From Escherichia coli (GTDB lineage: Bacteria > Pseudomonadota > Gammaproteobacteria > Enterobacterales > Enterobacteriaceae), in the NCBI RefSeq assembly GCF_017348835.2, contig NZ_CP071375.1: a stretch of DNA of 64,000 bases; one strand, 5' to 3'. The notes beneath the pieces are model-generated. The model saw only the letters and a list, made by a program, of their open reading frames with translations, was not told the DNA's origin and did not search any database. Below, piece after piece: positions 15,190 through 62,921 of the stretch; within the stretch, counting starts at the first letter, position 1; every line of letters starts with the position of its first letter. The position numbers were made by a program, and so were the translations under genes.

Positions 15190-15951
<762 letters not shown>

Positions 15952-15988
15952 CTATCCACGGGACGATCCCCTGCGTGACATTCACATA

Positions 15989-16006
15989 TATGAAAAAATC
16001 GTGCCA
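15989..16006 (-). promoter_or_regulatory. Sigma-54 (-24/-12) promoter element for glnH (glnHp2)
   Basis: Minus-strand TGGCACGATTTTTTCATA matches GG-N10-(G)C spacing, about 50 bp upstream of glnH start. Confidence 0.6.
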
Positions 16007-16039
16007 GTTTTGCAACTCATTGATTTTTCGAGATGCGGC

Positions 16040-16112
16040 AAAAACGTGATGCACGATTTATAGGGCAATACCCTGAAGATGCACCATTCTGGGGCACCAA
16101 ACTGGTGCGCTA
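16040..16112 (-). promoter_or_regulatory. NtrC enhancer sites upstream of glnHp2
   Basis: Overlapping matches to TGCACCA-N3-TGGTGCA: gcaccattctggggcacc and gcaccaaactggtgcgc. Confidence 0.55.
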
Positions 16113-16267
16113 AAATTGTGCACTCAACACAGTGATTATTTAGCGTAAAACCTGATGAAAAAACAATCTTTATGTAACGATTGTGTGATGATGTGGATAC
16201 AAAAAATTTACTTAACCAGCTGGAGATAGCAGATGGATGCACTAAATAAGTGCGTTGAGGCGGGCTG

Positions 16268-16300
16268 CAAAACAAAACGGCCTCCTGTCAGGAAGCCGCT
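16268..16300 (-). terminator. Candidate terminator downstream of dps
   Basis: Imperfect hairpin cggcctcctg/caggaagccg with T-rich tract on the minus strand. Confidence 0.45.
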
Positions 16301-16339
16301 TTTATCGTGTACTAAAGTTCTGCACCATCAGCGATGGAT

Positions 16340-16987
<648 letters not shown>

Positions 16988-51320: not shown

Positions 51321-51604
51321 AACTTCCCGACGCAAAGTGATTAAAAGGGAGCCAATACAGGCAAGTCGTTGAGAATAAAGTGCAGGTTAAACTGGGTAAA
51401 GCGGCATCGTCTTATTTCCCTCAAGCGGCCTGTTTACGGTGGGTGATTGTAACGGGCATAGGTTAAATAAAACTTAAAGAAAGCGTAGCTATACTCGCAA
51501 TAATGTAAGAATGTGCTTAACCGCGGTTTCAGCTACAAAATTCGCTTTCTCGTTAGCTGCGCTTTTATTAAACTTTGCGCGATTATTATTGGCGAAGAAA
51601 TTGC

Positions 51605-52837
51605 ATGCAAAATAAATTAGCTTCCGGTGCCAGGCTTGGACGTCAGGCGTTACTTTTCCCTCTTTGTCTGGTGCTGTACGAATTTTCAACCTATATCGGC
51701 AACGATATGATTCAACCCGGTATGTTGGCCGTGGTGGAACAATATCAGGCGGGCATTGATTGGGTTCCTACTTCGATGACCGCATATCTGGCGGGCGGGA
51801 TGTTTTTACAATGGCTCCTGGGGCCGCTGTCGGATCGTATTGGTCGCCGTCCGGTGATGCTGGCGGGAGTGGTGTGGTTTATTGTCACCTGTCTGGCAAT
51901 ATTACTGGCGCAAAACATTGAACAATTCACCCTGTTGCGCTTCTTGCAGGGCATAAGCCTCTGTTTCATTGGCGCTGTGGGATACGCCGCAATTCAGGAA
52001 TCCTTCGAAGAGGCGGTTTGTATCAAGATCACCGCGCTGATGGCGAACGTGGCGCTGATTGCTCCGCTACTTGGTCCGCTGGTGGGCGCGGCGTGGATCC
52101 ATATGCTGCCCTGGGAAGGGATGTTCGTCTTGTTTGCCGCATTGGCAGCGATCTCCTTTTTCGGTCTACAACGAGCCATGCCTGAAACCGCCACGCGTAT
52201 AGGCGAGAAACTGTCACTGAAAGAACTCGGTCGTGACTATAAGCTGGTGCTGAAGAACGGCCGCTTTGTGGCGGGGGCGCTGGCGCTGGGATTCGTTAGC
52301 CTGCCGTTGCTGGCGTGGATCGCCCAGTCGCCGATTATCATCATTACCGGCGAGCAGTTGAGCAGCTATGAATATGGCTTGCTGCAAGTGCCTATTTTCG
52401 GGGCGTTAATTGCGGGTAACTTGCTGTTAGCGCGTCTGACCTCGCGCCGCACCGTACGTTCGCTGATTATTATGGGCGGCTGGCCGATTATGATTGGTCT
52501 GTTGGTCGCTGCTGCGGCAACGGTTATCTCATCGCACGCGTATTTATGGATGACTGCCGGGTTAAGTATTTATGCTTTCGGTATTGGTCTGGCGAATGCG
52601 GGACTGGTGCGATTAACCCTGTTTGCCAGCGATATGAGTAAAGGTACGGTTTCTGCGGCGATGGGAATGCTGCAAATGCTGATCTTTACCGTCGGTATTG
52701 AAATCAGCAAACATGCCTGGCTGAACGGGGGCAACGGACTGTTTAATCTCTTCAACCTTGTCAACGGAATTTTGTGGCTGTCGCTGATGGTTATCTTTTT
52801 AAAAGATAAACAGATGGGAAATTCTCACGAAGGGTAA
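51605..52837 (+). CDS. mdfA: Multidrug efflux MFS transporter MdfA (Cmr)
   Basis: ORF 51575..52837 trimmed to [20 protein letters not shown] start (410 aa). Confidence 0.9.
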
Positions 52838-61364: not shown

Positions 61365-61714
61365 TAACTCCTTTCGAGCACGCAGTCGCTGGTGCAGTGA
61401 CTGCGCGCTGCAAAATTATCTGCTGTTTTTAACCTTTTCTTAAAGATTATTTCACTTCTCTTGTGTCGATTTGGCTTTATCACATAGAGCAAATACGCAT
61501 AAAAATTTGTTAAATACCGTTTTTTAATCCGAGCTATAGTCTCAAACCCTGGCTAAAGTTATTCTTGCGATGCTTTTATATAGCGAGCAGTGCTGGCCGG
61601 GAGAGAGTTCTCTTTTCTTACACCGCGCCGATAAAAAATATGCACGTTTATTGCATATCTTTCAGTGTGACAACTTTTGTTCGTTTGTTAACGAACTTTC
61701 AGAAGGAAAGAGAT

Positions 61715-62827
61715 ATGACCGCCTTAAATAAAAAATGGCTTTCGGGTCTGGTTGCGGGTGCTCTGATGGCCGTCTCTGTCGGCACGCTCGCGGCTGAACA
61801 AAAAACACTCCACATTTATAACTGGTCTGATTATATCGCCCCCGACACGGTGGCTAACTTTGAAAAAGAAACCGGTATTAAAGTCGTCTACGATGTTTTC
61901 GACTCTAACGAAGTACTGGAAGGCAAATTAATGGCCGGGAGCACCGGCTTTGACCTGGTGGTGCCGTCAGCAAGCTTTCTTGAACGCCAGCTGACAGCGG
62001 GAGTTTTCCAGCCGCTGGATAAAAGCAAATTGCCGGAGTGGAAGAATCTCGACCCGGAACTGCTGAAGTTGGTCGCCAAACACGATCCCGACAATAAATT
62101 TGCTATGCCCTATATGTGGGCGACGACCGGGATTGGCTATAACGTCGATAAAGTCAAAGCGGTGCTGGGCGAAAACGCGCCCGTCGATAGCTGGGACTTG
62201 ATCCTCAAGCCTGAAAATCTGGAAAAACTGAAAAGCTGCGGTGTATCTTTCCTCGATGCGCCAGAAGAAGTTTTTGCTACCGTGCTGAATTATCTCGGCA
62301 AAGATCCAAACAGCACTAAAGCGGATGATTACACCGGACCGGCTACCGATCTGCTGTTAAAGCTGCGCCCGAACATTCGTTATTTCCATTCATCTCAATA
62401 CATTAACGACCTGGCAAACGGCGATATTTGCGTCGCTATCGGCTGGGCAGGTGATGTCTGGCAGGCGTCAAACCGCGCGAAGGAAGCGAAGAATGGCGTG
62501 AATGTCTCGTTCTCGATTCCAAAAGAAGGGGCGATGGCGTTCTTTGATGTATTCGCCATGCCTGCGGATGCCAAAAATAAAGACGAAGCCTATCAGTTCC
62601 TGAATTACCTGCTGCGTCCTGATGTGGTGGCACATATCTCTGACCATGTGTTCTATGCTAACGCTAATAAAGCAGCCACGCCGCTGGTGAGTGCGGAAGT
62701 CCGTGATAACCCGGGTATTTATCCGCCTGCGGATGTCCGCGCGAAGTTGTTCACTCTGAAAGTACAGGATCCGAAAATCGACCGTGTGCGCACCCGCGCG
62801 TGGACCAAAGTGAAGAGCGGAAAATAA
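61715..62827 (+). CDS. potF: Putrescine-binding periplasmic protein PotF
   Basis: ORF 61565..62827 trimmed to MTALNKKWLSG signal-peptide start (370 aa); GGAAAGAG RBS. Confidence 0.9.
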   Translation: MTALNKKWLSGLVAGALMAVSVGTLAAEQKTLHIYNWSDYIAPDTVANFEKETGIKVVYDVFDSNEVLEGKLMAGSTGFDLVVPSASFLERQLTAGVFQPLDKSKLPEWKNLDPELLKLVAKHDPDNKFAMPYMWATTGIGYNVDKVKAVLGENAPVDSWDLILKPENLEKLKSCGVSFLDAPEEVFATVLNYLGKDPNSTKADDYTGPATDLLLKLRPNIRYFHSSQYINDLANGDICVAIGWAGDVWQASNRAKEAKNGVNVSFSIPKEGAMAFFDVFAMPADAKNKDEAYQFLNYLLRPDVVAHISDHVFYANANKAATPLVSAEVRDNPGIYPPADVRAKLFTLKVQDPKIDRVRTRAWTKVKSGK

Positions 62828-62921
62828 TCCGCAGCCTTAGATGCCGGGCGGGAGCGCCACTCCCTCCGGCAATTCGCACCAACATGGTGCGCTTGCACAC
62901 ATTTAATGCCGGAGAGCAGCC

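Follow-up and report, generated by a model that had tools for sequence, protein, structure and literature searches.

The region under study is the intergenic spacer between dps and glnH on the Escherichia coli chromosome, which lies within the 64,000-nucleotide stretch of DNA analysed here (hereafter "the window"). Read along the minus strand, positions 15700-16500 contain the end of a gene, a spacer of 403 bp, and then an open reading frame beginning with MKSVLK. The region is 99-100% identical to E. coli dps-glnH in 5417 of 5426 complete genomes; across 15700-16500, full (100%) identity is limited to 2 records among the 5421 complete E. coli genomes that match. The gene order opgE, ompX, yliM, rhtA, dps, glnH, glnP, glnQ, ybiO is shared with both the best-matching strain and K-12 MG1655. 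Over 461 aligned bases, the window and K-12 differ at six positions, one in dps and five in the spacer, none of the latter falling at an NtrC, IHF, or sigma-54 consensus position. Position 16101 (T here, A in K-12) sits inside the unspecified 3-bp spacer of the NtrC site centred at -122, and position 16019 (T here, G in K-12) occupies an unspecified base (N) in the IHF consensus; neither change would be expected to matter.

Downstream of the spacer, glnH, glnP, and glnQ encode the periplasmic binding protein, permease, and ATP-binding subunit of the glutamine ABC transporter (Table 1). All three open reading frames are full length, and the operon is therefore intact. The initial annotation had reached the same verdict by treating the promoter as proof of intactness, a step that does not follow; it is the reading frames that carry the conclusion.

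Table 1. Features of the dps-glnH spacer and the glnHPQ operon, listed in the direction of glnH transcription; promoter-relative positions of the NtrC and IHF elements refer to glnHp2
Feature	Position in window	Strand	Mean majority fraction	Remarks
Candidate NtrC-like palindrome, CGCACTTATTTAGTGCA on minus strand	16238-16254	.		TGCAC-N7-GTGCA in most genera
Sigma-70 promoter glnHp1	16130-16202	-		CRP site, -10-like TAAATA, and predicted start
Degenerate CRP site of glnHp1, ttgTATCCacatcaTCACAcaa	16181-16202	-		Mao 2007; centred at -61.5
-10-like TAAATA of glnHp1	16137-16142	-		Predicted from the spacing in Mao 2007
Third, weak NtrC-like 17-mer, centre -135	16106-16122	.		3 mismatches
Distal NtrC site, centre -122, CGCACCAGTTTGGTGCC	16093-16109	.	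0.79	2 mismatches, confined to the outermost bases
Proximal NtrC site, centre -109, TGCCCCAGAATGGTGCA on minus strand	16080-16096	.	0.81	1 mismatch to 17-bp consensus
IHF consensus AATCAATGAGTTG (pattern WATCAANNNNTTR)	16013-16025	-	0.83 (IHF block)	Exact consensus match
Sigma-54 (RpoN) -24/-12 element of glnHp2, CTGGCACGATTTTTTCA	15991-16007	-	0.92 (17-mer)	Exact match; top weight-matrix hit; ChIP-seq site OS06
Predicted start of glnHp2, +1 G	15979	-		Mao 2007 primers mapped onto the window
Small 5'UTR hairpin GGGG-ATCG-TCCC	15960-15971	-		+9 to +20; 4 pairs; invariant; GGGG-N4-(T/C)CCC
glnH, periplasmic glutamine-binding protein, 248 aa	15190-15936	-		Identical to K-12 GlnH
glnP, permease, 219 aa	14393-15052	-		Identical to K-12 GlnP
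glnQ, ATP-binding subunit, 240 aa	13674-14396	-		2 substitutions relative to K-12; no stop codons
Spacers between elements			0.43-0.57	

The minus-strand string TGGCACGATTTTTTCATA, in which the initial annotation had recognized a -24/-12 architecture, is present exactly as described there, occurring once in the window at 15989-16006. The sigma-54 element itself lies on the glnH strand with its end 54 bp from the glnH ATG, and is identical to that of E. coli K-12. Sigma-54 promoters are defined by GG and GC doublets 10 bp apart (TGGCAC-N5-TTGCW), 11-14 bp upstream of the start. Written as TGGCAC-N5-TTTCA, the element departs from this pattern by one mismatch, T replacing G in the "GC"; the -12 pentamer TTTCA (15991-15995) is thus non-consensus, most sigma-54 promoters having TTGCA. 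Relative to the predicted start, the GG of the -24 element falls at -26/-25 and the TC replacing the -12 GC at -14/-13.

Scoring was carried out with a weight matrix built from 39 intergenic sigma-54 ChIP-seq sites (Bonocora et al. 2015), with glnH and two other sites located inside the window withheld from the training set. The scan, which the initial annotation had put forward as a check, ranked the glnH motif as the best match in the 64 kb on both strands, at 16.6 bits, i.e., at about the median of the 39 training sites. A score at least as high was reached in 27% of the windows obtained by dinucleotide shuffling, and a loose -24/-12 consensus search of the window revealed no enrichment (36 matches versus 42 expected). 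By itself, the sigma-54 motif score is only suggestive and not decisive; since more than a quarter of shuffles attain it, we rely instead on context, on evolutionary conservation, and on binding data from the literature.

Such binding data are available for both K-12 and Salmonella. Sigma-54 ChIP-seq in K-12 detected CTGGCACGATTTTTTCA on the minus strand as site OS06, assigned to glnH and listed as "confirmed" in EcoCyc, and overexpression of sigma-54 raised glnH expression (Bonocora 2015). In gSELEX experiments with K-12 DNA, the RpoN holoenzyme yielded a peak of 74% in the glnH/dps spacer. In Salmonella, ChIP-chip placed sigma-54 at the orthologous site TGGCATGATTTTTTCATT, and the expression ratio of glnHPQ between the wild type and the delta-rpoN strain is 7.1-fold. 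In synthetic enhancer constructs, glnHp2 behaves as a weak promoter (Levy et al.), a weakness probably due to the T that replaces G in the -12 "GC".

Upstream of the sigma-54 element, NtrC sites were sought with a 17-bp dyad consensus, TGCACCA-N3-TGGTGCA, and its 15-bp core, GCACCA-N3-TGGTGC; an NtrC enhancer is expected to contain two or more such dyads some 100-150 bp upstream of its sigma-54 promoter. The core is matched exactly at 16094-16108 (distal site) and with one mismatch at 16081-16095 (proximal site), the two 17-bp sites being 13 bp apart and overlapping by 4 bp. Claverie-Martin and Magasanik, in 1991, reportedly placed the NtrC site centres of glnHp2 at -109 and -122, with which our coordinate arithmetic agrees. 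Overlapping motifs 70-110 bp upstream had been announced in the initial annotation, and the dyads do lie 74-103 bp upstream of TGGCAC; the literal TGCACCA-N3-TGGTGC given for them does not hold, as each site is one mismatch removed from it. A third 17-mer, centred at -135, was considered and rejected as a functional NtrC site: it is not conserved outside Escherichia, its majority fraction (0.53) is that of spacer, and it is probably not functional.

For the NtrC part of the locus, chance is clearly not the explanation. A cluster of three GCACCA/TGGTGC half-site words inside 40 bp arose in 0.4% of shuffles, and the 15-bp core with at most one mismatch has three matches in the window, two of them at the glnH spacer, versus 0.24 expected. 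With the full 17-bp dyad and up to three mismatches allowed, six matches were obtained in the window versus 3.4 expected. In nitrogen-starved K-12, NtrC ChIP-seq identified glnHPQ as a direct target ("direct binding"), and gSELEX placed an NtrC peak of 87% in the glnH/dps spacer and restated the NtrC box consensus.

Between the NtrC sites and the promoter, directly upstream of the -24 element, lies an exact IHF consensus spanning -46 to -34 (centre -40). The primary footprinting work on glnHp2 is said to have located an IHF site immediately upstream of the promoter. Exact IHF consensus matches number six in the window versus 2.7 expected, making the match alone weak evidence; in most other genera, the block reads AAACAA-N4-TTG, one mismatch from the consensus. 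Work from the Kasho lab cites a DNase I footprint of IHF at glnH (from a 1991 paper). That work also includes ChIP-qPCR of IHF at glnH, with an amplicon corresponding to 15983-16087 in window coordinates, and glnH falls below the high threshold applied to its genome-wide IHF data set. At glnHp2, looping requires the DNA bend that IHF introduces. Both this site and the upstream sigma-70 promoter glnHp1 had been overlooked in the initial annotation.

Conservation was assessed with one genome per species, giving 80 loci from more than 20 enterobacterial genera with GlnH 93-100% identical; counts refer to 81 sequences, i.e., these loci plus the window, and individual elements were aligned across 25 genera and scored by the mean majority fraction (Table 1). 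In 80 of 80 loci, the sigma-54 motif is the best weight-matrix match upstream of glnH, ending 52-55 bp before the ATG, except in a single metagenome-assembled genome, where the distance is 58 bp. TGGCA(C/T) occurs in 81/81 sequences, and the -12 pentamer TTTCA in 80/81, across more than 20 genera. The outer half-sites of the enhancer, GCACCA of the -122 site and TGGTGC(A) of the -109 site, are near-invariant in the 25 genera, with GCAC-A and GGTGC, respectively, fully so. Moreover, the elements keep a fixed spacing in all 80 loci, whereas the spacers between them diverge. This conservation across orthologous loci removes the remaining doubt about chance, and all of the glnHp2 DNA elements are under purifying selection. 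Retention of TTTCA in all but one of the sequences suggests that the weakness of the promoter is itself selected rather than accidental.

The transcription start of glnHp2 in this strain was placed by means of the construct of Mao 2007, which spans -289 to +63 of glnHp2 and for which both primer sequences are given. Transposing these published coordinates onto the window would set the +1 at 15979, leaving a 5'UTR of 43 nt with the glnH ATG at +44; the "distance 44" recorded for glnH by Bonocora 2015 agrees with this position. The portion of the 5'UTR from +2 to +20 (15960-15978) is as conserved as the promoter, with a mean majority fraction of 0.92, and includes a small potential hairpin at +9 to +20. 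No compensatory changes or covariation were found for this hairpin in the aligned genera, a result that supports neither the presence nor the absence of an RNA structure.

Farther upstream lies glnHp1, whose transcripts are separated from those of glnHp2 by primer extension (Mao 2007). Its start would be located near 16130, and the glnHp1 block is strongly conserved among enterobacterial sequences. A simple sigma-70 scan of 15900-16400 returned no good consensus promoter, in line with the report that sigma-70 polymerase alone binds glnHp1 weakly (Mao 2007). A conserved inverted repeat, ACAATC-N10-GATTGT, was also observed at 16163-16184, where it overlaps the presumed -35 of glnHp1 and adjoins the published CRP site. 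A terminator scan of the same 15900-16400 interval did not flag the dps terminator hairpin, although this can be read by eye at about 16279-16297.

Just past the dps terminator and upstream of glnHp1, a further palindrome with an NtrC-like appearance is present. Its centre is at approximately -267 relative to glnHp2 and -116 relative to glnHp1, placing it upstream of the -109 NtrC site by some 158 bp, equivalent to about 15 turns of the helix. Of the 81 sequences, 78 deviate from the 10 core positions at no more than one base, a closer fit than at either of the published NtrC sites; in many genera, one half is a perfect TGGTGCA or TGCACCA. Among the 72 sequences with an exact core, 67 maintain a spacing of 239-241 bp between the palindrome and the TGGCA of the sigma-54 motif. 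The pattern TGCAC-N7-GTGCA with at most one mismatch has three matches in the 64-kb window, all within 175 bp of the glnH spacer. As read from the sequence, the E. coli version is weak, with four mismatches to the full 14-position consensus. No description of this palindrome was found in the searchable literature. One tentative possibility, to which we attach rather low confidence, is that it constitutes a third, undescribed NtrC site that would bracket glnHp1 together with the -109 and -122 sites; during nitrogen limitation, phosphorylated NtrC might then either silence glnHp1 by looping it out, or adjust glnHp2 much as the "governor" sites do for glnAp2. A different factor may equally well recognize the palindrome.

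Taken as a whole, the region is almost certainly glnHp2, from which sigma-54 polymerase transcribes the E. coli glutamine ABC-transporter operon glnHPQ under nitrogen control. The initial annotation had proposed such a promoter with an NtrC enhancer, and this reading is borne out by the identity of the -24/-12 element to that of K-12, by ChIP-seq, and by gSELEX. What the present analysis contributes is the presence, position, statistics, and conservation of the elements and the integrity of the genes; binding and dependence on rpoN and NtrC come from the published work in K-12 and Salmonella. With the sequence identical at all consensus positions, the same regulation would be expected to operate in this strain. 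Under this scheme, (i) sigma-54 RNA polymerase would occupy the -24/-12 element as a closed complex unable to open alone. (ii) Upon nitrogen limitation, NtrB would phosphorylate NtrC, and (iii) the phosphorylated form would bind the overlapping palindromes at -109/-122 (16080-16109) and assemble into an oligomer. (iv) IHF would bend the intervening DNA, allowing the oligomer to contact the closed complex. (v) ATP hydrolysis by NtrC would then yield the open complex, with transcription proceeding from about 15979. Independently of nitrogen status, the upstream, CRP-assisted, sigma-70-dependent glnHp1 would provide expression.

Other explanations for the same sequence were weighed against this one. 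Matches to short motifs might represent chance similarity in an AT-rich spacer with no regulatory role, as would be compatible with the unenriched loose -24/-12 search, the fraction of shuffles reaching the sigma-54 score, and the six dyads found versus 3.4 expected when three mismatches are tolerated. The stricter NtrC core (three matches versus 0.24 expected) and the rarity of the half-site cluster in shuffles already speak against this, and the explanation is refuted by the conservation of the elements in 80 of 80 loci from more than 20 genera amid divergent spacers, together with the direct binding data from NtrC ChIP-seq, sigma-54 ChIP-seq, and gSELEX; the probability left to it is close to nil. 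A different objection concerns the activator: sigma-54 promoters are open to cross-activation from solution by other activators, and the promiscuous DctD250 activates Salmonella glnHPQ, such that an enhancer-binding protein other than NtrC could in principle be the main activator of a genuinely sigma-54-dependent promoter. We consider this very improbable, given that the upstream sites fit the NtrC box, that NtrC binds the region upstream of glnHPQ both in vivo (ChIP-seq) and in vitro (gSELEX), and that, in the synthetic constructs of Levy et al., glnHp2 deprived of its own upstream activator sites was not cross-activated.

It could also be argued that the sigma-54 site is bound yet non-productive, acting as a poised complex or roadblock, with glnHPQ transcribed only from glnHp1. 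Many sigma-54 binding sites, e.g., intragenic ones, may indeed never yield transcription (Bonocora 2015), and glnHp2 has both a non-consensus -12 element and weak activity in synthetic contexts. Against this stand the rpoN dependence of glnHPQ in Salmonella, the resolution of glnHp1 from glnHp2 by primer extension (Mao 2007), the conservation of the enhancer and IHF site at fixed spacing, and the fact that sigma-54 overexpression up-regulates just five genes with intergenic sites, glnH being one of them; a silent sigma-54 site is hence exceedingly improbable. A productive, NtrC-activated glnHp2 is the reading retained here, and none of the observations contradicts it.

Comparison with characterized promoters places the locus within a familiar class. 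The K-12 glnHp2, reportedly described by Claverie-Martin and Magasanik in 1991, has the same locus, genes, -24/-12 element, NtrC and IHF consensus positions, and spacing, and differs from the window by the five single bases in the 403-bp spacer described above. The glnAp1/glnAp2 pair of E. coli is organized like the glnH promoters, with a CRP-helped sigma-70 promoter upstream, a sigma-54 promoter activated by phosphorylated NtrC downstream, and sites at roughly -110 to -140. Unlike glnHp2, glnAp2 does not require IHF, its -12 GC matches the consensus (TTGGCACAGATTTCGCT), and its NtrC sites, at -108 and -140, are separated, whereas at glnHp2 the NtrC sites overlap with a 13-bp offset, the -12 pentamer is TTTCA, an IHF site is present, and activity is weak. 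Klebsiella nifH, Pseudomonas Pu, and E. coli pspA resemble glnHp2 in that looping to a weak sigma-54 promoter is aided by IHF, which bends the DNA separating it from the enhancer; their activators are NifA, XylR, and PspF, respectively, in place of NtrC, and the IHF consensus of glnHp2 differs from theirs in abutting the -24 element.

Elsewhere in the window, a perfect NtrC-type dyad, CGCACCAACATGGTGCG, was noted at 62875-62891, between potF, whose end is at 62827, and potG; collinear coordinate mapping puts it at the NtrC peak that gSELEX revealed in this spacer (Shimada 2021). Two other published sigma-54 ChIP-seq motifs of Bonocora also occur on the plus strand: TTGGCGAAGAAATTGCA, site OS07, at 51589-51605, and ATGCACGTTTATTGCA, site OS08, at 61640-61655 upstream of potF.

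Ultimately, glnHp2 in this strain is already known biology, and the finding has little meaning beyond annotation; i.e., the strain carries an unaltered textbook enhancer-dependent promoter, long studied in its own right, together with an intact glnHPQ operon. Should the far-upstream palindrome prove to be an NtrC site, it would represent an extra layer of control over the switch between glnHp1 and glnHp2. Across the Enterobacteriaceae, the fixed combination of a weak -12 element, an IHF site, and overlapping NtrC sites accords with a published proposal in which a weak promoter is favoured by selection, its weakness making activation contingent on correct enhancer geometry.
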